Shown piece after piece: positions 4,693-15,299 of a stretch of DNA of 37,807 nt; position 1 is the first letter of the stretch, and each line of letters starts with the position of its first letter. The notes under the pieces were generated by a model. The model ran no database searches. It saw only the letters and a program-made list of their open reading frames with translations, and had not been told where the DNA came from. The DNA comes from a virus, in the IMG/VR virus record IMGVR_UViG_3300031976_000938, positions 1 through 37,807 of that record. One strand, given 5' to 3'. A program made the translations under genes and the position numbers.

Positions 4693-7611
4693 ATGGCAGA
4701 ATCCAAATATTCTATCCGGCTCGCTGCCAAGGATGCCTTCAGCAGCACGTTTGAGTCGTTCGAAGACGCCTCAGCGGGCGTGCGCGCCGCAGTGCGCGAT
4801 CAGCAAGATGAGCTGCGCACGCTTAACCGAGTCGCTCGGGATGTTGACGGCTACCAGCGTCTAGAAACGAAGATTGAGTCTACGAAGACCCAGCTTGCCT
4901 CGGCGCGGGCAGAGCATGCCCGCTTGGGGCGCGAGGTTGAGCAGTCTGGGAATCGTGTTGGCGAGCTGGCAGCGCAATATGACACGGCTCGCGTCACGCT
5001 CCGTCGTCTTGAAGATGCGACCGAAAGCAGTGCTGCTGAAGTTAAAGCGGCGCGTGTTGAGCATAATCGCCTTGAGCGGGAGCTGAACGCTGCCGAGCGT
5101 GCTGAACGGTCTCTCACAACACAGCGTGATAAGTCGACAGCCAATGTCAAAACGCTGGAAAGCGCCGAGCGTGGCCACCGTAATGAGCTGGGCCGCGTTA
5201 GTCGATCGCTGACCGATGCCGGTGTTGATACCAACAACCTAGCCGAAGAGCAGCGACGCCTGGAGCGCTCGATTGAGAGCGCGAACGGTGCCCTGCAAAG
5301 CCAGCGTGGCCGCCTGGACGCCGTGCGTGACGCTCAAGGCCGAATCGATGCCAACCGCAACGCGCGGGCAGATTTGCGCGGCAGAGCGGTGGAAACGGCA
5401 GCGCTGGGCTATCTCGCATCGCGTCCGATTAATCAGGCGATGGACGTTGAAACCGCTGCGGCCGAGTACGCCAAGGTGGCCAACGGCGTCACGCCTGAGC
5501 AGATTCAGGAAATGGCGTCGACCAACCTACGCATGTCGACCGAGCGGCAGTTTGCAGCGGCTGAGCTGACGGCGGTTGACCTGTTCCGGATTCAGGCGTC
5601 GGCTGCTCAGGGTGGCATCGATAGCGAAGAGGTGATGCCGTTCACCCGCACCGCCGCGACCATGGCGGCGGCGTTTGATATGAGCGCCGACGATGCCGGT
5701 GACACGCTAATGGCGTGGCGTGCCGGTATGGGGCTCGACCAGGGGCGCGCCAACCTGCTGGCCGATGCCAGTAATGAACTAGGCAATACCTTCAACGCGC
5801 AGTCGGGTGATATTGCCGACGTATTGCGTCGCCAAGGCGCTGTGGCGATGTCGTCGGGCTTTAGCGAGCTTGAAACCGCTGCCCTTTCGGCGGCGCTGCT
5901 CAACGGCGGCGCTACCCGGGAGGTGTCAGCGACAGCGCTGAAGAACCTGACCGGTGCGCTGACCAAGGGCGATGCGGCATCGAACCCGCAAAAGCAGGCG
6001 CTTTCCTCTTTGGGTTTCGACTCGGTGGATCTTGCCAGCTCAATGCAGTCGGATGCCGTGGGCACCACGCTCGAAGTGATCGATGCGCTGCAGCAGGCAC
6101 CGCCTGAGCAGCTCTCGGCGCTGGTAACGCAGATCTTTGGTGAGGACAGCAAGGGCGCAATCATGCCCTTGCTGGCCAACACCGATGCGTTACGCCAGGC
6201 GTTTGATCTGGTGGCCGACGAGCAGTCTCTGATGGGCTCATCGGCACGAGAAGCGGCGGGACTTTCCGAGACATCGCGCACCACCTGGAACCGCACGGTC
6301 TCGTCGTTCGGTCGACTGACCGCGATCGTTGGCACGGCAATGCTGCCCGCCTTTGAGGCGGTGGCTAACCCTTTGGCGGATGCAGTCAACCTGGTTGCCG
6401 ACTTCGCTGAGGAAAACCAAGGGCTTGTGGGCGTGCTTGCCGCAGGTGCGGCGGGCATTGTCGCGCTCAAGACGGCAGCGCTTGGTCTCCAGTTCGGCAA
6501 GCTAATGCTGGGCCAGGGCGCTAACTACGCGCGGCTGGCCAATGCCCGTTCTGGGCTGAATACCCGACAGGCTCAAACGGCTCGCGCGGCAGACGGTGCC
6601 ACGCGGCGCTTAAACGCGGCCATGAACATGCTAGGCCGTGGCGGTGCCGCAGGTGCGGCTGGGCGTCGCGCTCGCACAGCGGGCCGGTCTACAGCCGGTG
6701 CTACGGGTGGAGCGCCGCGCCGTGCCACCGTGCCAGCCGCCAATACGCGCATGGCTGGGATGTCCTTTGCCCCAGTGGCCGGAGCGGCTCCAGCGGCGGC
6801 GCCTGCTGCTGCCGGTAACGCGGCGCGTGGTGGTTGGCGTGGTGGTTTATCGCGCGCGGGCGACCTGGCCAACCGAGCAAGCAACAGCCGGGTAGCGAAA
6901 TGGGGTGGCCGTGCAGCGGTGCCGCTAATGCTGCTGGGAGGCGCTGCTCAAGCGGCCAACGCGGCGGGCGAGGGTGATGCCGAGGGCGTTGGTAGTGCCG
7001 TCGGCGGTATGGCGGGCGGCCTTGGCGGTGCCTGGGCGGGAGCGGGTGCAGGCGCGGCGCTTGGCACGATGATCCTTCCGGGTGTTGGCACGGCCGTGGG
7101 TGGTGCTGCCGGTGGTTTGATCGGTGGCATTGCGGGCTCGGGTGCGGGCCAGTGGATTGGAGAGAAGGCGGGCGGATTCTGGAACTGGGCAACCGGCGGA
7201 GACGACGACAAGCCGCAAGCGGCGCTGGATCCGTTAGCGGTGAATGCGGCCGCTCATGTTGGTGCAACACCGCGTGCACAGATATCTCCTATCGCGTTTA
7301 CCTCTGCCCATCAGGTGGCCGCTGCCAGCCAAGCGCCACCGCCACCGGCGCAGATCTCGCCAGAGGCACTGGTTGTAGCCAACCGGGTGGCATCTCCTGA
7401 GGACGCGGCGCGGGAGGTCACTGAGAACAACGATAACCGCACGATCTCACCATCGTTTGACATCAAGATCGAGTCGAGCGGCGACCCCGCGCGTGACGAA
7501 GTGCTGCTCGATCGCCTGATGGAGCGACTGCGTACCGAGCTAATGCCCATGCTGCAGGGCGGCGGATTGGACGTTCGCCTGGATGCATCACTAACCGACG
7601 GAGGGGCTTGA
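4693..7611 (+). CDS. tail tape measure protein
   Basis: 972 aa. N-terminal coiled coil, central TP901-type tape-measure-like region, Gly/Ala-rich hydrophobic segment near the C-terminus; sits after the frameshift chaperones. Confidence 0.9.
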   Translation: MAESKYSIRLAAKDAFSSTFESFEDASAGVRAAVRDQQDELRTLNRVARDVDGYQRLETKIESTKTQLASARAEHARLGREVEQSGNRVGELAAQYDTARVTLRRLEDATESSAAEVKAARVEHNRLERELNAAERAERSLTTQRDKSTANVKTLESAERGHRNELGRVSRSLTDAGVDTNNLAEEQRRLERSIESANGALQSQRGRLDAVRDAQGRIDANRNARADLRGRAVETAALGYLASRPINQAMDVETAAAEYAKVANGVTPEQIQEMASTNLRMSTERQFAAAELTAVDLFRIQASAAQGGIDSEEVMPFTRTAATMAAAFDMSADDAGDTLMAWRAGMGLDQGRANLLADASNELGNTFNAQSGDIADVLRRQGAVAMSSGFSELETAALSAALLNGGATREVSATALKNLTGALTKGDAASNPQKQALSSLGFDSVDLASSMQSDAVGTTLEVIDALQQAPPEQLSALVTQIFGEDSKGAIMPLLANTDALRQAFDLVADEQSLMGSSAREAAGLSETSRTTWNRTVSSFGRLTAIVGTAMLPAFEAVANPLADAVNLVADFAEENQGLVGVLAAGAAGIVALKTAALGLQFGKLMLGQGANYARLANARSGLNTRQAQTARAADGATRRLNAAMNMLGRGGAAGAAGRRARTAGRSTAGATGGAPRRATVPAANTRMAGMSFAPVAGAAPAAAPAAAGNAARGGWRGGLSRAGDLANRASNSRVAKWGGRAAVPLMLLGGAAQAANAAGEGDAEGVGSAVGGMAGGLGGAWAGAGAGAALGTMILPGVGTAVGGAAGGLIGGIAGSGAGQWIGEKAGGFWNWATGGDDDKPQAALDPLAVNAAAHVGATPRAQISPIAFTSAHQVAAASQAPPPPAQISPEALVVANRVASPEDAAREVTENNDNRTISPSFDIKIESSGDPARDEVLLDRLMERLRTELMPMLQGGGLDVRLDASLTDGGA

Positions 7612-9354: not shown

Positions 9355-10110
9355 ATGTCTAAACCATTCATTCAGTGGATGGGCGGCAAGCGCCGCCTGG
9401 CCAAACACATTCTGCCGAACTTCCCTGACCACCAGTGCTACGTTGAGCCCTTCGCGGGCGGCGCGGCGCTGTTTTTCATGAAGCAGCCGAGCAAAGTGGA
9501 GGTGATCAACGATACCAATAGCGACCTGGTTAACTTGTACCGCGTGGTGCAGCACCACCTGGAAGAGTTCGTCCGCCAGTTTAAGTGGGCGTTGGTCTCC
9601 CGCGAGATATTCGCGTGGGAGAAGCTCAAGCACGTTGACACGTTGACGGATATCCAGCGCGCCGCGCGGTTCTACTACCTGCAGCAGCAAGGGTTCGGCG
9701 GTAAGCTCAATTCCAACTTTGGCATCTCGACCACGTCTAGCCCTGGCCTGAACCTGCTGCGGATCGAGGAGAACCTCAGCCAGGCGCACCTGCGGCTCTC
9801 GCGCGTGTTCGTCGAGAACATGGACTGGAAAGCGGTCATGAAGCGCTACGACCGGCCGCACACACTGCACTATCTGGATCCGCCGTATTGGGCGACCGCT
9901 GGCTATGATTGCGAGTTCCCATTCGAGGAGTACGAGGCGATGGCCACGCTTGCGCGGGAGGTGCAGGGGAAGGTGATCATCTCGATCAACGATCACCCTG
10001 ACATACGCCATGTATTCGATGGGCTGCGGATCGAGGAGGTGTCGCTCAACTACACGGTGGGCGCGAGTAACAGTAAGAAGGCCAAGGAGCTGGTGATTTA
10101 TAACTGGTAG
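9355..10110 (+). CDS. dam: DNA adenine methyltransferase, Dam (D12 class) family
   Basis: N-terminal WMGGKRRLAKHILPNFP...YVEPFAGGAALFF (AdoMet motif) and catalytic LDPPYW motif. AAGGA RBS. Confidence 0.9.
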   Translation: MSKPFIQWMGGKRRLAKHILPNFPDHQCYVEPFAGGAALFFMKQPSKVEVINDTNSDLVNLYRVVQHHLEEFVRQFKWALVSREIFAWEKLKHVDTLTDIQRAARFYYLQQQGFGGKLNSNFGISTTSSPGLNLLRIEENLSQAHLRLSRVFVENMDWKAVMKRYDRPHTLHYLDPPYWATAGYDCEFPFEEYEAMATLAREVQGKVIISINDHPDIRHVFDGLRIEEVSLNYTVGASNSKKAKELVIYNW

Positions 10111-10121
10111 GCAAAAAGAAA

Positions 10122-10152
10122 CCCCATCGCCGAAAGGCGGTGGGGCTTTTTT
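10122..10152. terminator. bidirectional intrinsic terminator between dam (+) and the 130-aa gene (-)
   Basis: 10-bp stem CCCCATCGCC / GGCGGTGGGG (one G-U pair) with a GAAA loop. TTTTTT lies downstream on the + strand and AAAAAGAAA upstream, which reads as a T-run on the - strand. Confidence 0.75.
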
Positions 10153-10167: not shown

Positions 10168-10560
10168 CTAGTTAAGCTCATCCCAGGGCACTGAGCCGGG
10201 CAGATCCTCGCCGGGCTCGCGAGGGCGAACTTGGGCGAGCTTCGCTTGGCGATCGGCGGGCGCTGCGAGCCGGTACGCTTCGAGCGTGCTGATCGCCCTG
10301 CCGTTGGCTGTTGTCCAGACCGGTCGGCCGTCCTGCTCACCGACGCGGATCCAGACCGGCCCTTGGTCGCTATCGCTCCACCGGCATGCCGCCCAGTCAT
10401 GGCCCTGGACGTCATCGGTGCGGGTGCAGGTCGCGACCCTGCCGGTTTCCTGGATGACCAGTTCGAGCTGGCGTTCATCTTTGCGGCCTTGGTCGCTTAG
10501 ATAGGCAATGACAGCGGCAACTGCGGTCACGCCGAGAATGATCTTTGTGATGGTTTTCAT
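10168..10560 (-). CDS. membrane-anchored / exported protein of unknown function (moron candidate)
   Basis: N-terminal hydrophobic helix MKTITKIILGVTAVAAVIAYL followed by a soluble domain with two Cys. It has its own flanking terminators. Confidence 0.7.
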   Translation of the reverse strand: MKTITKIILGVTAVAAVIAYLSDQGRKDERQLELVIQETGRVATCTRTDDVQGHDWAACRWSDSDQGPVWIRVGEQDGRPVWTTANGRAISTLEAYRLAAPADRQAKLAQVRPREPGEDLPGSVPWDELN

Positions 10561-10629: not shown

Positions 10630-10657
10630 ACAAAAAGCCCTGCTGGGCGGCAGGGCT
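10630..10657 (-). terminator. intrinsic terminator ending the 10666-12130 operon
   Basis: On the minus strand, AGCCCTGC-cgccca-GCAGGGCT is followed by TTTTTGTTG. Confidence 0.65.
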
Positions 10658-10665
10658 GGGGGTGG

Positions 10666-11139
10666 TTAGGGTTTAGGTCGCAAGCCAATGGAGTTTAGTG
10701 TTCCCACGGCTTCTTCGTTTACGCCTTCGCCACTGGGATTCGCCTCGCTGAGCGTTACTCGGGCCACCACGAGGCGTCGATCTCGGCTCAGTCCCAGTCG
10801 ATCCAATAGGTATTTTGCCTGATCAGCCCCAGCGCGGTCGCTGTGTGCGCCATCTGTCAGGGTGGGGTTTCCGTGTTGATCTAGCTTGGCTAGCCACCAC
10901 TGCTCGCCAATCGTGGGCGCGGTCGGCTCGCGCCTTAGCTGTTCTTGCGGCGCTGCTTCCATTAAGCCTGTTGGGGTTTGCGCAGTGCCCGTGCCTGTTA
11001 GAAAGCGATCAGCTTCCTGCTCGATCAGATCTGCTGCGCGCCATGCAGGATGTTTGTGCAGCTCGCTTTCTGGCTGGCCTTCGCAGGCAGATCGGGCGGC
11101 CTTGCGCAGTTCATCGGGGGTCGGTGCGCTGTAGGTCAT
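10666..11139 (-). CDS. hypothetical protein (157 aa)
   Basis: ATGA start/stop overlap with the upstream gene. No family recognised by eye. Confidence 0.7.
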   Translation of the reverse strand: MTYSAPTPDELRKAARSACEGQPESELHKHPAWRAADLIEQEADRFLTGTGTAQTPTGLMEAAPQEQLRREPTAPTIGEQWWLAKLDQHGNPTLTDGAHSDRAGADQAKYLLDRLGLSRDRRLVVARVTLSEANPSGEGVNEEAVGTLNSIGLRPKP

Positions 11140-11576
11140 TGGGCTGCCTCCGTTTCGCCTTTATCTTTAGGTCGCGTGGCGTTGCATTCCGGGTAAGTGC
11201 AGGCCATGGTGCCGTCGCCCATGTCCTCCCAGTCGTGATCGCAATCATCGCTCACCTTTTCCGGAGCGGGCTCCTGTGGGATATACACCTCACGCTTTAC
11301 GGCTGCCGTCATAAGCACCTGGTTATTGCTAACTGTCACGCTGCCAAGTGCGTGGTGCTGGGTGCCTGAGATCGGTGAGGTCATAACCGGTGCGCATGTC
11401 ACCAAGCGCCCCACCAGGCGGTCAAAATCTTCAGGATCAATATCAAACTTATTGGTGAGCAGCTCGTCCATCTGATCCCAGCCCGCATCGTCATCGCTAA
11501 GCTCGCCAGGGAACATCGCTTGCAGCAGTTCAAAACGCTCAAGATCGGTTAGCGGGTAAAATTTCTGTTTGCTCAT
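11136..11576 (-). CDS. hypothetical acidic protein with C-terminal Cys/His cluster (146 aa)
   Basis: AAAGGAAAT RBS. Strongly acidic N-terminal half (ELSDDDAGWDQMDELL...DPEDFD). C-terminal CDHDWEDMGDGTMACTYPEC. Confidence 0.75.
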   Translation of the reverse strand: MSKQKFYPLTDLERFELLQAMFPGELSDDDAGWDQMDELLTNKFDIDPEDFDRLVGRLVTCAPVMTSPISGTQHHALGSVTVSNNQVLMTAAVKREVYIPQEPAPEKVSDDCDHDWEDMGDGTMACTYPECNATRPKDKGETEAAQ

Positions 11577-11592
11577 TATTATTTCCTTTTGA

Positions 11593-11721
11593 TTAGCGCC
11601 GCGGGCGACGACGTTTAGGTGATCCCATCTCTTCGAGGATCTCGATCAGGTAATCCGCCAAAGCGAACAGGTAGCGGATCGTTGCCACCAGGAAGCGGCC
11701 TATCTGTTTGAGCGCTTTCAT
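11593..11721 (-). CDS. small ORF, 42 aa: amphipathic/hydrophobic helix plus poly-Arg tail (not in the ORF track)
   Basis: Hand translation: MKALKQIGRFLVATIRYLFALADYLIEILEEMGSPKRRRPRR. Its ATG overlaps the TGA of the upstream gene (ATGA) and it exactly fills the gap between two called genes. Confidence 0.45.
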   Translation of the reverse strand: MKALKQIGRFLVATIRYLFALADYLIEILEEMGSPKRRRPRR

Positions 11722-11984
11722 TGTCCACCTCTCAGTGCCGCGTGGGCGTCTTTCAGGTGTTGGCCAGTAAGGGTGAGGGTTCGCTCGCTTCCTGGCTCAC
11801 GAGCGGTGTAGAAACCGTCTAGGCAGCGCTTTTCGCGCAGACGCTTGGCCATAACGTCACCGTTGCCGCTAGGGCGTCGGTATTCCCATGCCTGGGCAAA
11901 CGGCGCGAGGGCGGTTTCTAGCGCCTGTATGCGCGCCTGCTGGCGTTCGAGCGCTTGCTCGATGCGTGAGATAGTGTTGCTCAT
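11718..11984 (-). CDS. hypothetical protein (88 aa, N-terminal coiled coil)
   Basis: Track ORF with ATGA overlaps at both ends. Confidence 0.7.
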   Translation of the reverse strand: MSNTISRIEQALERQQARIQALETALAPFAQAWEYRRPSGNGDVMAKRLREKRCLDGFYTAREPGSERTLTLTGQHLKDAHAALRGGQ

Positions 11985-12130
11985 GCTGACGCCCCCAGCA
12001 GCCTTAGCAGGCTGCGAGAAACGCAGGCAGGGGTGTTTTCATCGGTGGCGTAGCGCGTGACGAGTTGCCGGTGCGCCAGCACGTTTTGCAGCGTTATTCT
12101 GCGGATCGTGGTAATCTCTTGCTGAGACAT
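11981..12130 (-). CDS. small ORF, 49 aa (not in the ORF track), first gene of the coupled operon
   Basis: Hand translation: MSQQEITTIRRITLQNVLAHRQLVTRYATDENTPACVSRSLLRLLGASA. GAGGA upstream; its stop overlaps the next ATG (ATGA). Confidence 0.4.
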   Translation of the reverse strand: MSQQEITTIRRITLQNVLAHRQLVTRYATDENTPACVSRSLLRLLGASA

Positions 12131-12200
12131 AGCAGTCCATCCTCGGTTTGTTTATGTCCGCCTGGTAGTCGGTAGCCGCCGACTGCCGGGCTTTTTCGTT

Positions 12201-12521
12201 TTAGGGGTCGTCGGCCAGTATTCGGTCGATGTCGCCCACTTCAAAGCGGCCTTCACCGCGCCGATATTTTTCAAAAAGATCCTGCACTGCTTCATCTAAA
12301 AATGTTTTGACTGGCACGTTATCGCGACTCTTAGCACGCATCATTGTCAGCTTGCTGTGTGTGTCAGGGTGGGTGTCATACGGAACTCGCCGCAGCTTCA
12401 CTTCTTCTTTCACATCGCGCATGGCGCGCTCTACATGCTTAGGCGCTTCCTTCGGCGCTTCTGTTGCGGCTTCCTTAGCCGCCGCAGGCTTGCGCGTCGT
12501 TAGTTTTTTGCGTTCAGCCAT
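12201..12521 (-). CDS. centromere-binding protein, ParG/omega-like ribbon-helix-helix (type Ib ParB analogue), 106 aa
   Basis: Start MAERKK at 12521 overlaps the parA stop (ATGGCTGA). Basic, low-complexity N-terminal tail, then LRRVPYDTHPDTHSKLTMMRAKSRDNVPVKTFLDEAVQDLFEKY, which matches the beta-alpha-alpha pattern of TP228 ParG by eye. Confidence 0.7.
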   Translation of the reverse strand: MAERKKLTTRKPAAAKEAATEAPKEAPKHVERAMRDVKEEVKLRRVPYDTHPDTHSKLTMMRAKSRDNVPVKTFLDEAVQDLFEKYRRGEGRFEVGDIDRILADDP

Positions 12522-13149
12522 TGAGAGCCTCCAGAATTTCCTTACCCAGCGCTTCGATCTCTTGGCGAGCTTTGTCACTGGCGGGTAGGTCCATCACGCT
12601 TCCGCCTTTGGCGCAGTCTGCAAACGCCACGCGTGAGGTGGTCAGTGCTGAAAAAACGGGCAGATCGTATTCAGCCAGAGCGTCGCGGACTTCGCGCCCC
12701 AGGTGCGTATTCTTGATCGCTCGTGACACTACAAATGCCGCCTTGGGCTTTCCGTCAGTTATGTCTTGTCGAGCGTGGATCAGATCAACGACATTCTCAC
12801 AGGCGTATATATCGAACGGGCTGGGCTGACAGGGGATCAGCACGAGGTCTGCAGTCTTGATCGCGGGCGTGATCAGCTCACTGATTTGCGGCGCGCCATC
12901 CAGTATCACGTAGTCGCAGCCACCGGTCAGGCGGGGCAGGTCGCGAGCGACTTGCTTGCCCATGCCCATTACTGGGAAAACGTCCTCGCTTTCGCGTGTC
13001 TCGCTCCACTTGGTAGCACTTCTTTGTGGGTCGATATCTACAAGCGCCACTTTATAGCCTTGCTGGTGTAGCCAGCAGGCCACATTGGTGGCCATTGTGG
13101 TTTTGCCTGCCCCACCTTTTTCGTTTAGAAAGCCAATAACCTTTGTCAT
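12514..13149 (-). CDS. parA: partition ATPase ParA (deviant Walker A, small type Ib form), 211 aa
   Basis: MTKVIGFLNEKGGAGKTT Walker A motif. GAGGAGG RBS upstream of ATG 13149. The longer track ORF (to 13215) reads through the repeat array and lacks an RBS. Confidence 0.9.
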   Translation of the reverse strand: MTKVIGFLNEKGGAGKTTMATNVACWLHQQGYKVALVDIDPQRSATKWSETRESEDVFPVMGMGKQVARDLPRLTGGCDYVILDGAPQISELITPAIKTADLVLIPCQPSPFDIYACENVVDLIHARQDITDGKPKAAFVVSRAIKNTHLGREVRDALAEYDLPVFSALTTSRVAFADCAKGGSVMDLPASDKARQEIEALGKEILEALNG

Positions 13150-13217: not shown

Positions 13218-13479
13218 ACTATTTCACATGCCATATATGGCGCTTTCCTCGCGCCGATCCCTTCTAAACCTGCCGTGAACCGCTAGCCACGAGCCTTGCA
13301 GGCTGTAAGCGAGAGCGCCGCTCGCTACCAGTCCCTTTCATACACAAGCCTTGTTGCTGCCTTCTTACCTATCCCTGCCACTACTAGCGCCTTATCCACT
13401 CAATTCGATAACTAATCCATTTAGCGAAAAAGCACCGCCAATAGTAGCGGGCTAAATATGTATGCAAGCCAATAAACCA

Positions 13480-13509
13480 TACATACATAGCCACGCCCCT
13501 ACATACATA
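13480..13509. repeat. two TACATACATA motifs left of the telomere palindrome (inverted relative to the right-hand copies)
   Basis: Exact 10-mers at 13480..13489 and 13500..13509. A 9/10 copy in the opposite orientation lies at 13457..13466. Confidence 0.6.
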
Positions 13510-13529
13510 TACACCCCTACCTATAGATA

Positions 13530-13603
13530 GGGCCACCTATGTATGCATACCCACCCCATACTATACGTATAGTATGGGGTGGGTATGCATACATAGGTGG
13601 CCC
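13530..13603. repeat. telomere resolution site (telRL-type): 74-bp perfect palindrome
   Basis: GGGCCACCTATGTATGCATACCCACCCCATACTATAC | GTATAGTATGGGGTGGGTATGCATACATAGGTGGCCC. The dyad centre lies between 13566 and 13567. All 37 positions of each arm were checked by hand. It lies 133 bp upstream of the protelomerase gene. Confidence 0.85.
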
Positions 13604-13610
13604 AATATAC

Positions 13611-13722
13611 TATGTATGTATACATTGCCCCCAGGTATGTTTATGTATGTATGAGTATATATAGGGCTTGACGTGTATGGTTTGATAGTCTATAAAGATA
13701 CATAGGGTTTACTATGTATGTA
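13611..13722. repeat. three direct TATGTATGTA motifs right of the palindrome
   Basis: Exact 10-mers at 13611..13620, 13642..13651 and 13713..13722. The last lies between the predicted protelomerase promoter and its RBS. Confidence 0.6.
13668..13696 (+). promoter_or_regulatory. sigma70-type promoter for the protelomerase gene
   Basis: TTGACG (13668..13673), 17-nt spacer, TATAAA (13691..13696). Confidence 0.6.
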
Positions 13723-13736
13723 ATGAGGGCGAGAAA

Positions 13737-15299
13737 ATGAGCGGTGAATCACGCAAAAAGGTAGATCTCGGCGAATTGATAGAATGGTTGCTGAGCGAGA
13801 TCAAAGAGATCGACGCCGATGAGGAATTGGCGCGAAAAGAGAAAACCAAGCGGCTGACGCGGCTGGCGCGTAGCTTCAAGAGCAAGCTACACGACGACAA
13901 ACGGCGCAAGGATGCTGACCGGATCGCGGTCACCACCTTCCGCCGCTACATGACTCAGGCGCGGAAAGCGGTGACTGCCCAGAACTGGCGTCATCACAGC
14001 TTTGATCAGCAGATCGAGCGGCTGGCCAGCCGCTACCCGGCATACGCGAGCCAGCTGGAGGCGATCGGCAAGCTTTCCGATATCAGCGCCATTCGTATGG
14101 CCCACCGCGAGCTGCTCGATCAGATCCGCAACGACGATGACGCTTATGAGGATATCCGGGCGATGAAGCTAGACCACGAGATCATGCGTCACCTGACGCT
14201 GAGCTCTGCCCAAAAAACCACGCTGGCTGAAGAGGCTAACGAGGTGATGGAAGAGCGGGCGGTCAACACGATCGAGCTAAATTATCACTGGCTGATAGAG
14301 ACGACTTACGAGCTGCTGAGCAATCGGGAGCGCTTGGTGGATGGCGAATATCGCGGCTTTTTCAGTTACCTAGCGCTGGGTCTAGCGCTGGCCACCGGGC
14401 GGCGGGCGATCGAGGTTTTGAAAACCGGCCGCATCACTAAGGTGGGCGAGTACGAGGTGGAATTTAGTGGCCAGGCCAAAAAGCGCGGCGGCGTCGATTA
14501 CAGCGAGGCTTACCACATCTATACGCTAGTGAAGGCTGACCTGGTTATCGAAGCCTGGGACGAGCTGCGATCGCTGCCGGAAGCCTCCGAGCTGCAGGGC
14601 ATGGAAAACAGCGACGTAAACCGGCGCACCGCCAAAACCTTGAACTCACTGACCAAGCGAGTTTTTGACGACGAGGCTCGCGTGTTCAAAGACAGCCGCG
14701 CGATCTGGGCACGCCTGGTGTTTGAGCTGCACTTCACCCGCGACAAGCGCTGGAAAAAAGTCACCGAGGATGTGTTCTGGCGCGAGATGCTTGGCCATGA
14801 GGACATGGACACCCAGCGCAGCTACCGCGCGTTTAAGATCAATTACCAGGAGCCTGAACAGGCTGACGAGGAAGATCACGAACACGGCAGCCGCCTGGAA
14901 GCGCTGCGCGCCCTGGACGGATCCGAGCAGCTTGAAAGCAGCGATGCTATGGCAAGGGTTCATGCCTGGGTTAAGTCGCAGATCGAGAAGGAGCCCGACG
15001 CCAAAATCACCCAGTCATTGATCAGCCGGGAGTTGGGCGTTTACCGGCCTGCCATCAAAGCGTACCTGGAGCTGGCGCGGGAGGCGCTCGACACGCCAAA
15101 CGTTGACATGGATAAAGTATCGGTGGCGGTGCCCAAGGCGGTGGCCGAGGCTAAGCCCCGGTTGACTCCCCACCAGCAAGGGGATGGCCGGTGGGGTTGT
15201 GTCGCTTCGATTAACGGGATCGAGGTGGCTCGGGTAGCCGACCAGGCAGGAAGGATCGAAGCGATGCGAGCCGCTTACAACGCGGCTGGCGGGCGCTGA
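13737..15299 (+). CDS. protelomerase (telomere resolvase, TelN/TelK family)
   Basis: 520 aa. ...FFSYLALGLALATGRRAIEVLKTG... and LGHEDMDTQRSYRAFKI (His...Tyr active-site pattern of Tyr-recombinase-like resolvases). Adjacent to the palindrome. Confidence 0.9.
   Translation: MSGESRKKVDLGELIEWLLSEIKEIDADEELARKEKTKRLTRLARSFKSKLHDDKRRKDADRIAVTTFRRYMTQARKAVTAQNWRHHSFDQQIERLASRYPAYASQLEAIGKLSDISAIRMAHRELLDQIRNDDDAYEDIRAMKLDHEIMRHLTLSSAQKTTLAEEANEVMEERAVNTIELNYHWLIETTYELLSNRERLVDGEYRGFFSYLALGLALATGRRAIEVLKTGRITKVGEYEVEFSGQAKKRGGVDYSEAYHIYTLVKADLVIEAWDELRSLPEASELQGMENSDVNRRTAKTLNSLTKRVFDDEARVFKDSRAIWARLVFELHFTRDKRWKKVTEDVFWREMLGHEDMDTQRSYRAFKINYQEPEQADEEDHEHGSRLEALRALDGSEQLESSDAMARVHAWVKSQIEKEPDAKITQSLISRELGVYRPAIKAYLELAREALDTPNVDMDKVSVAVPKAVAEAKPRLTPHQQGDGRWGCVASINGIEVARVADQAGRIEAMRAAYNAAGGR

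Follow-up and report, generated by a model that had tools for sequence, protein, structure and literature searches.

In Escherichia coli, the 77-nt cis-encoded RNA SymR has its promoter inside the first codons of its target and is fully complementary to the target's start codon and Shine-Dalgarno (SD) sequence; the target, SymE, is a small soluble protein with an AbrB fold. The accessory regions of phage-plasmids gather lysogenic-conversion, defence and counter-defence genes, and their regulation is largely unknown. For VP882-like phages, the part of the published description available to us distinguishes two variable regions, one of them called the 'accessory region' (PMC12802170). Telomere phages of Klebsiella carry, between repA and telN, a telocin/immunity locus encoding a pore-forming bacteriocin and a membrane immunity protein, a cassette found by proteomics to be expressed in lysogens (PMC12042878). 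Here we analysed a five-gene operon at positions 10666-12130 of a 37,807-nt viral DNA sequence (IMG/VR record IMGVR_UViG_3300031976_000938; the whole stretch is hereafter the window), which is a phiHAP-1-like (Hapunavirus) linear phage-plasmid of Halomonas type. Our main finding is a conserved, predicted cis-antisense RNA over the translation start of the first gene. On balance, we think that the locus is a Hapunavirus accessory operon that is gated by this RNA and continues from the partition genes parAB without a terminator.

The operon lies on the minus strand and consists of open reading frames (ORFs) that we name by length in amino acids (aa): ORF49 (11981..12130), ORF88 (11718..11984), ORF42 (11593..11721), ORF146 (11136..11576) and ORF157 (10666..11139). 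They are chained by ATGA overlaps at 11981-84, 11718-21 and 11136-39 and by one 16-nt gap between ORF42 and ORF146 (11577-11592), which contains the SD sequence AAGGAA. By consensus scan, an intrinsic minus-strand terminator (10657..10636, then TTTTGTTG) ends the operon. Between the stop codon of parB (12201) and the first ATG (12130), the same scan detected no terminator on the minus strand and a strong one on the plus strand (12160..12191), whose 14-bp stem precedes TTTTTCGTTT. An earlier note, made from the letters of this DNA, had described the same chain of five ORFs, the terminator at its end, and, in the parB-ORF49 interval, a single hairpin whose T-run is on the opposite strand, and on all of these it agrees with the ORF coordinates and the sequence. 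It had also remarked that the 49-aa and 42-aa ORFs were missed by the ORF track. Judged by their ratios of nonsynonymous to synonymous substitution rates (dN/dS), both short ORFs are real genes: the 49-aa frame has a dN/dS of 0.17-0.24 against four relatives, with changes mostly at third positions, compared with 0.86-3.0 in the alternative two frames, and the ORF42 frame has a dN/dS of 0.1 against the nearest relative. The ORF88 frame gave ~0.1.

The plus-strand hairpin is placed to terminate a small RNA (sRNA) that we predict on the plus strand, ~75-80 nt long and running from ~12124-12126 to ~12201. Its predicted extended -10 promoter, TGGTAATCT (12109..12117, plus strand; consensus TGnTAnnnT), lies inside ORF49 codons 5-8. 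The transcript would fold into a first stem-loop (12126-12158) presenting an anti-SD sequence, followed by the terminator hairpin (12160-12191) with a U-tract to ~12201, abutting the parB stop codon. The span is complementary to ORF49 codons 1-2, the ORF49 SD, the entire parB-ORF49 spacer and the parB stop codon.

The promoter motif is conserved across relatives, which we designate by L numbers. TGnTAnnnT stands at a fixed distance, ~10 nt before the complement of the start codon, in 13/13 aligned sequences from ~8 lineages including VP882: VP882 and L044 have a perfect TGTTATAAT, L040 and L047 have TGGTATAGT, and L050 has TGGTATACT. When ORF49 codons 1-17 were compared in 12 sequences, the only invariant third positions were those of codons 6 and 7, every other codon showing at least three different third bases. 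Codon 6 is always NNT despite encoding I, V, A or Y and despite third-position GC contents of 0.46-0.84, and codon 7 is always ANC. The fixed bases of these two codons supply A(-11), T(-12) and the G of the TG motif.

The predicted fold is conserved as well. All 13 candidate RNAs (73-83 nt from the predicted start) have the same two-hairpin shape, in which a 5' stem closed by GACAU...(U)GUGUC, with the anti-SD sequence near its tip, is followed by a GC-rich terminator hairpin and a U-rich tail. Every lineage has the terminator hairpin, with differing stem sequences, and in all cases the antisense strand forms the more stable version, since its G-U pairs correspond to C-A mismatches in the sense strand. 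In five lineages, the antisense strand folded with z-scores of -3.1 to -6.6, and the sense strand of the same segments with z-scores of +0.3 to -2.4. Eight pairs had compensatory changes, and 96.9% of alignment cells were paired, against 78.7% in shuffles (0/500) and 33-49% in slid controls, in a count whose structure came from the same alignment and in which many loci are close relatives. A covariance model gave exactly one match in each of 30 par-bearing sources, always antisense, and no match in 7 unrelated phage loci or elsewhere in the 37.8-kb window. In the AT-rich, Vibrio-type locus L046, an inserted 218-aa DUF6012 gene (1302-1958) separates parB from the antisense-RNA/ORF49 unit, the RNA remaining with ORF49. 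Rfam 15 gave 0 matches at the gathering score over the whole window and none at E<=1 in 12100-12210; miRNA-like Rfam matches to the telomere palindrome described below were attributed to chance. On these comparisons the antisense RNA is quite likely to exist. It is apparently undescribed, and it may have been sighted before in work on VP882 small RNAs (VpdS).

We infer that the RNA is produced and that it acts on ORF49. A repressive action seems fairly likely, and any specific biological role considerably less so. By pairing with the ORF49 start codon and SD, the sRNA would block ORF49 translation, and the sRNA-mRNA duplex would probably be cleaved as well. Because each downstream gene starts on or near the preceding stop, at an ATGA or across the 16-nt gap, the block would spread along the chain to the later genes. 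The operon would be threshold-gated, with protein made only when sense transcription outruns the antisense RNA. Small type Ib ParB/ParG-type proteins repress their own promoter, as is established for ParG-type systems, so sense transcription would peak on entry to a naive cell, before repression of the par promoter sets in, and perhaps a second time after induction. The gate might then open on entry or after induction. The earlier note had thought the operon likely to be expressed in lysogens, which is now doubtful given that the hairpin belongs to a conserved predicted RNA antisense to the first gene's translation start. Since this RNA overlaps that start, repression rather than free expression is predicted at steady state, and ORF49 appears to be held in check in the lysogen.

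Comparison with relatives indicates that the five genes are not one conserved unit; they comprise a universal head, lineage-restricted genes and a swappable cassette. Nine IMG/VR loci of the phiHAP-1 group all have the order parA-parB-ORF49-ORF88-ORF36/42, and ORF49 is present after parAB in 30/30 related loci. ORF88 and ORF42 are restricted to certain lineages; in L009, ORF88 has lost 19 internal residues, and in L010 it is frameshifted. What lies between the small peptide and the terminator varies among the loci of the phiHAP-1 group. It encodes 146 and 157 aa in the window, 146 aa and a 70-aa Cys-rich protein in L007, 85 aa in L002-L004, 113 and 127 aa in L005, 198 aa (DUF5406) in phiHAP-1, L006 and L009, and 113 and 70 aa in L010. 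In distant relatives (ParB identity 38-58%, including VP882 and two genome contigs), the ORF49 homologue is always kept and the downstream genes change. With ORF49 alone universal, ORF88 and ORF42 restricted, and ORF146 and ORF157 interchangeable, the single five-gene unit of the earlier note does not hold, which by the note's own standard, conservation as a block in relatives, tells in part against its proposal.

The unrelated genes of the first cassette slot begin alike. MSKQK is common to the 146-aa gene (window 11576-11562) and the 113-aa gene, and the 198-aa gene begins MSNTKN or MCNQKN, which suggests that the cassette recombination junction lies shortly after the start of the gene. The accessory operons of four other lineages encode a DEDDh/RNase_T-type 3'-5' exonuclease (L019 5473-6093, which is VP882 gp46; L040 3915-4469; L044 1677-2258; and L050 2340-3209, where it is fused to an additional C-terminal region), and there is none in the window. 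One gene of the relatives' cargo had a weak Ead/Ea22-like match.

We searched all five proteins and the relatives' cargo against Pfam, NCBIfam, PHROGs and PADLOC (PADLOC-DB v2). For the five proteins, Pfam, NCBIfam and PADLOC gave no significant family and PHROGs gave hits of unknown function only, in keeping with the earlier note, which had recognised no family among them. Profile searches of the PDB with the ORF146, ORF157, ORF88 and ORF49 families returned nothing. The note's suggestion of defence, anti-defence or toxin-antitoxin cargo found no known family here or in the relatives' cargo, where the only match to defence systems was the generic DEDDh exonuclease. One marginal PADLOC match, of ORF88 to AbiEi (E=7.8e-4, 17 bits), covered the coiled-coil region only and was rejected.

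ORF49 is basic, with an isoelectric point (pI) of 10.6, and belongs to a family of 48-51 aa proteins that includes VP882 gp51. The Halomonas-type members and the VP882-type members, which are phrog_27476 and have no known function, were linked by profile comparison (hhalign probability 96.7%, E=4e-10). ORF88 is a coiled-coil protein with the motif PFAxAW...GFY...LTGxHLKDA and is present in most Halomonas-type relatives. A word-indexed search found it in Hapunavirus-type relatives only, and an exhaustive HMMER search found ~15 distant relatives of 80-230 aa sharing PFAxAW...RRLERALxGFY...LTGxHL(K/R)DA. The family is absent from Pfam and the PDB and nearly absent from PHROGs, and viral-contig scans for the genomic context of its distant members were uninformative. 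One distant member, in the metagenomic locus L023 (3000-4210), has a Cys-rich C-terminal extension; its gene belongs to an integrase-bearing island, where a TraR/DksA-type zinc-finger gene and one large primase-like gene are its neighbours, so the ORF88 family is not confined to phage-plasmids. ORF42 is a small peptide, hydrophobic or amphipathic in character, whose C-terminal tail is rich in Arg.

Counterparts of ORF49, ORF88 and ORF42 are carried by phiHAP-1, all of them un- or mis-annotated, and the annotation of its positions 4883-5412 (L001, NC_010342) looks wrong. The 140-aa 'ORF31' is an ORF88 homologue run upstream over ORF49 in a frame without coding signal. It conceals the conserved 49-aa gene (L001 5253-5402), and the 36-aa membrane peptide gene that is the ORF42 counterpart (L001 4883-4993) is unannotated. 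The phiHAP-1 annotation can now be corrected, with ORF31 concealing two genes.

The window's cassette holds two composite proteins. ORF146 (pI 4.25, net charge -17) is the very acidic protein with a C/H cluster that the earlier note had singled out. It joins an N-terminal 'A' domain of ~100 aa to an optional C-terminal zinc knuckle, CDHDWxDxGDGTxxCTYPxCxATR (CDHDW...CTYPEC in ORF146), and half of the ~30 clusters in its family are without the knuckle. The A domain also stands alone in many phages, VP882 gp45 among them (pairwise E=2e-6). A-domain genes lie within small early-gene arrays of unrelated phages: one stands between an FtsK-gamma protein and the ERF/SSB module of a temperate phage, and two stand directly behind an HTH_3 gene. 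The AlphaFold2 model of ORF146, with a predicted local distance difference test score (pLDDT) of 80.5, has three helices, a beta-hairpin and a small three-stranded C-terminal unit, and in the BFVD database it resembles uncharacterised phage proteins only.

ORF157 is a two-part fusion in which a helical N-module (residues 1-50) and a disordered linker precede a C-terminal 'W' domain (75-157, phrog_37698), whose function is unassigned in PHROGs. Its AlphaFold2 model (pLDDT 72.7) likewise has two domains with a disordered linker between them. The N-module recurs on proteins with four other C-termini. The W domain occurs alone in several places, including 87-aa and 80-aa Pseudomonas phage proteins, and in protein P0028 it is fused to the same zinc knuckle as in ORF146. 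In these Pseudomonas phages, a gene that PHROGs classes as 'Lar-like restriction alleviation protein' has its end overlapped by the W-domain gene. Neither the ORF146 model nor the ORF157 model had a Foldseek match in the PDB at E<=0.001, and the structural comparison recommended in the earlier note yielded no annotated fold. The order of an A-domain gene followed by a W-domain gene recurs in the distant locus L050 and probably also on a 1.1-kb Sphingomonas contig, so the cassette is a recurring pair with add-ons.

The cargo proteins look like ordinary members of the small early-protein pool of phages, and the domains of ORF146 and ORF157 do occur in early-gene arrays, a resemblance that the earlier note had regarded as telling against its proposal. 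Our best guess is that the cassette products serve host takeover or counter-defence at establishment. The links to anti-restriction are the adjacency of W-domain genes to the 'Lar-like' PHROG gene and the acidity of ORF146; comparison of ORF146 and ORF157 with anti-restriction proteins (Lar/RalR, ArdA, Ocr) gave no likeness in Pfam, PHROGs or Foldseek-PDB. Overall, what the earlier note had observed was confirmed, and its interpretation was partly supported.

Several points besides the shared origin of structure and alignment in the pair count weigh against an antisense-gated operon with establishment cargo. The RNA and its promoter are predicted here from sequence alone. The window's -10 hexamer, TAATCT, agrees with the consensus at 3/6 positions and has no -35, so the predicted promoter depends on its TG motif, and L020 and L021 have no good U-tract after the hairpin. 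No sense promoter for the operon was identified; a promoter-like site within parB (12367..12340) was considered as an internal sense promoter and rejected because it is not conserved. The entry and induction timing is a model that we infer, and no family or fold match supports a counter-defence role for the cargo.

Among the alternatives, a type I toxin-antitoxin (TA) or post-segregational killing module beside parAB survives best, and we regard it as unlikely. The antisense RNA would be an unstable antitoxin and ORF42 and/or ORF49 the toxin, and a cell that had lost the phage-plasmid would be killed once translation was released. ORF42 would be reached by coupling, as hok is via mok, and ORF49 could be a soluble toxin like SymE or RalR. 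The layout of the sequence is consistent with this, as the predicted antisense RNA covers the site where translation of the coupled chain's first ORF begins, and the ATGA coupling reaches ORF42. The module also adjoins parAB on a low-copy plasmid prophage, and the RNA/ORF49 pair is found in 30/30 loci. Single-transmembrane or amphipathic peptides like ORF42 (29-52 aa, with one hydrophobic segment and charged ends, ATGA-joined to the preceding gene) occur in 6/9 lineages. However, they are absent from L039, L044 and L050, which retain the RNA and ORF49, and a membrane peptide that is not universal weakens the TA explanation. ORF49 is not hydrophobic, there was no likeness to a known type I toxin or TA family (Pfam, NCBIfam, PADLOC) or to an RNA family (Rfam, over the region at E<=1), and a long variable cargo coupled downstream would be unusual for a TA locus.

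It is quite improbable, in our assessment, that the operon is constitutive cargo co-expressed with parAB in the lysogen, with the plus-strand hairpin as a back-stop terminator that shields parAB from convergent transcription such as late-operon read-through past the methylase terminator (10122-10145). Such expression would accord with the lack of a minus-strand terminator between parB and ORF49 and with an SD for each gene, and the plus-strand terminator would indeed halt antisense read-through. Klebsiella telomere phages offer a precedent for a variable toxin/immunity cassette that is expressed in the lysogen, at another locus, repA-telN (PMC12042878). A back-stop nevertheless leaves unexplained the invariant TGnTAnnnT and the frozen synonymous sites ~10 nt from the start codon, the conserved 5' stem-loop presenting an anti-SD sequence, and an element that stays with ORF49 in L046.

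Least probable of all is a secondary immunity or lysis-lysogeny module like P22 immI (sar, ant) or P1 immI (c4, icd-ant), in which ORF49 would be a regulator or antirepressor silenced in the lysogen and the later genes passengers: an antisense RNA does lie over the start of a small, basic, universal protein heading an operon in a plasmid prophage, ORF49 has the size of a minimal ribbon-helix-helix (RHH) repressor and reads as an alternating N-terminal TTIRRITL followed by two predicted helical stretches, and the available part of one description reports small cI-inactivating ORFs at another locus of linear plasmid phages, but by the same account VP882-like phages have their known switch modules in the telN-repA interval and not at the accessory locus (PMC12802170), and hidden Markov model searches of Pfam and PDB profiles gave the ORF49 family no RHH, Arc, Ant or KilA match and found no Ant/KilAC or Arc/Mnt-type RHH domain in ORF49 or the downstream proteins, so the RHH reading of ORF49 found no support in these searches and was rejected.

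Extending the antisense-gated operon beyond the window, we tentatively suggest, with rather less confidence than in the locus itself, that all Hapunavirus-like telomere phage-plasmids (hosts named in these records: Halomonas and Vibrio) carry an undescribed threshold switch for the operon downstream of parAB. It would consist of the ~75-80-nt RNA and a 48-51-aa basic protein and would either time counter-defence or host-takeover genes to establishment or induction or itself be a new type I TA whose toxin is soluble. If the gate is real, it would explain how cargo can sit behind the constitutively needed parAB without constant expression, and a single synonymous change in the promoter should turn the cargo on. 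VP882 offers a tractable model for a direct check of the gate. Several small-protein families are now defined for functional screens, namely ORF49/phrog_27476, the ORF88 family and the A-domain/W-domain pair.

The accessory locus sits between tail gene D with the methyltransferase and parAB-telN, on the parAB strand, and its gene families are common with Hapunavirus (phiHAP-1/VP882-like). The earlier note had placed a phage-plasmid cargo region at this position, and the available part of the VP882-like phage description independently calls it the accessory region (PMC12802170). The closest and sole near annotated relative of the window is Halomonas phage phiHAP-1, with 79% DNA identity across the parAB end of the query; PLSDB plasmids gave no match. 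Upstream of the operon lie the small parB analogue (12201..12521, minus strand; phrog_15913; likely start the ATG of MAERKK), which adjoins parA in all related loci, and parA itself (12514..13149, minus strand). The latter encodes a type Ib ParA/ParF-like ATPase (Pfam AAA_31, CbiA and ParA) with 82% identity to phiHAP-1 ParA, and its likely start is the ATG of MTKVIGF, the mechanical ORF reaching 13215. The product of the protelomerase gene (13737..15299, plus strand) matches the catalytic, stirrup, N-terminal and muzzle domains of ResT/TelK in Pfam. A telRL-type palindrome (13524-13609; 43-nt arms, 95% complementary, no spacer) located between this gene and parA is the telomere-resolution site. 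In its flanks (13449-13722), a TATGTATG(C/T)ATAC-like motif is repeated many times in both orientations; these copies may be centromere or TelN-accessory sites.

On the other side of the operon, a DNA methyltransferase gene (9355-10110, plus strand) has its own plus-strand terminator (10122-10145). Its protein is 97.6-98% identical to those of the phiHAP-1 group, compared with which ParA (82%), ParB (72%) and TelN (88%) are far more diverged, suggesting recent exchange or unusually strong constraint. Just beyond the operon terminator lies a gene for a 130-aa protein with an N-terminal hydrophobic anchor (10168-10560, minus strand). In relatives this conserved membrane-anchored gene comes right after the equivalent of the terminator. 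Unlike the upstream cassette, this gene keeps its place in every Halomonas-type relative (27-96% identity), with two tandem copies in L010. The 36-kb Hapunavirus-like contig L020 (NZ_JAIHOM010000047.1) is filed under a cyanobacterial assembly, 'Spirulina subsalsa FACHB-351', and more likely came from a Halomonas-type bacterium living in the culture.

Among described systems, the Klebsiella telocin locus is alike in being a variable cassette in a telomere phage, and we rejected it as an analogy because both its position (repA-telN) and its proteins are different. The accessory region of VP882-like phages and phiHAP-1 ORF28-32 are the same locus as the window operon: VP882 gp51 belongs to the ORF49 family, gp48 is a small transmembrane peptide, gp45 belongs to the A-domain family and gp43 to the 113-aa cassette family. 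The RNA, the ORF49 family and the cassette structure do not figure in the part of the published description available to us (PMC12802170).

Like hok/sok (the parB locus of plasmid R1) and CopA/tap-repA, the locus lies in a plasmid maintenance region and has a first frame whose translation would be blocked by an antisense RNA, with the downstream genes coupled to it. It differs in that ORF49 is a conserved protein under purifying selection and not a mere leader and, from hok/sok, in that a membrane peptide is encoded by the third gene and is missing from some lineages; Hok, Mok and Tap have no homology to the proteins here. P22 sar/ant and P1 c4/icd-ant resemble it as phage antisense RNAs silencing the head of an operon that is kept off in the lysogen, and in P1 c4/icd-ant the silencing also passes on through coupling. 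Unlike those immI modules, the locus is fused to parAB and has no antirepressor or Icd homologue, and c4 acts in trans after processing. None of these systems shows sequence kinship with the RNA or the proteins of the window. SymR/SymE has no sequence or Rfam relation to the sRNA described here; ORF49 is unrelated to SymE by Pfam and, as the target, stands first in a long coupled operon carried by a phage-plasmid. In geometry, however, SymR/SymE matches the predicted sRNA and ORF49, each being a short cis RNA with its promoter in the early codons of its target.

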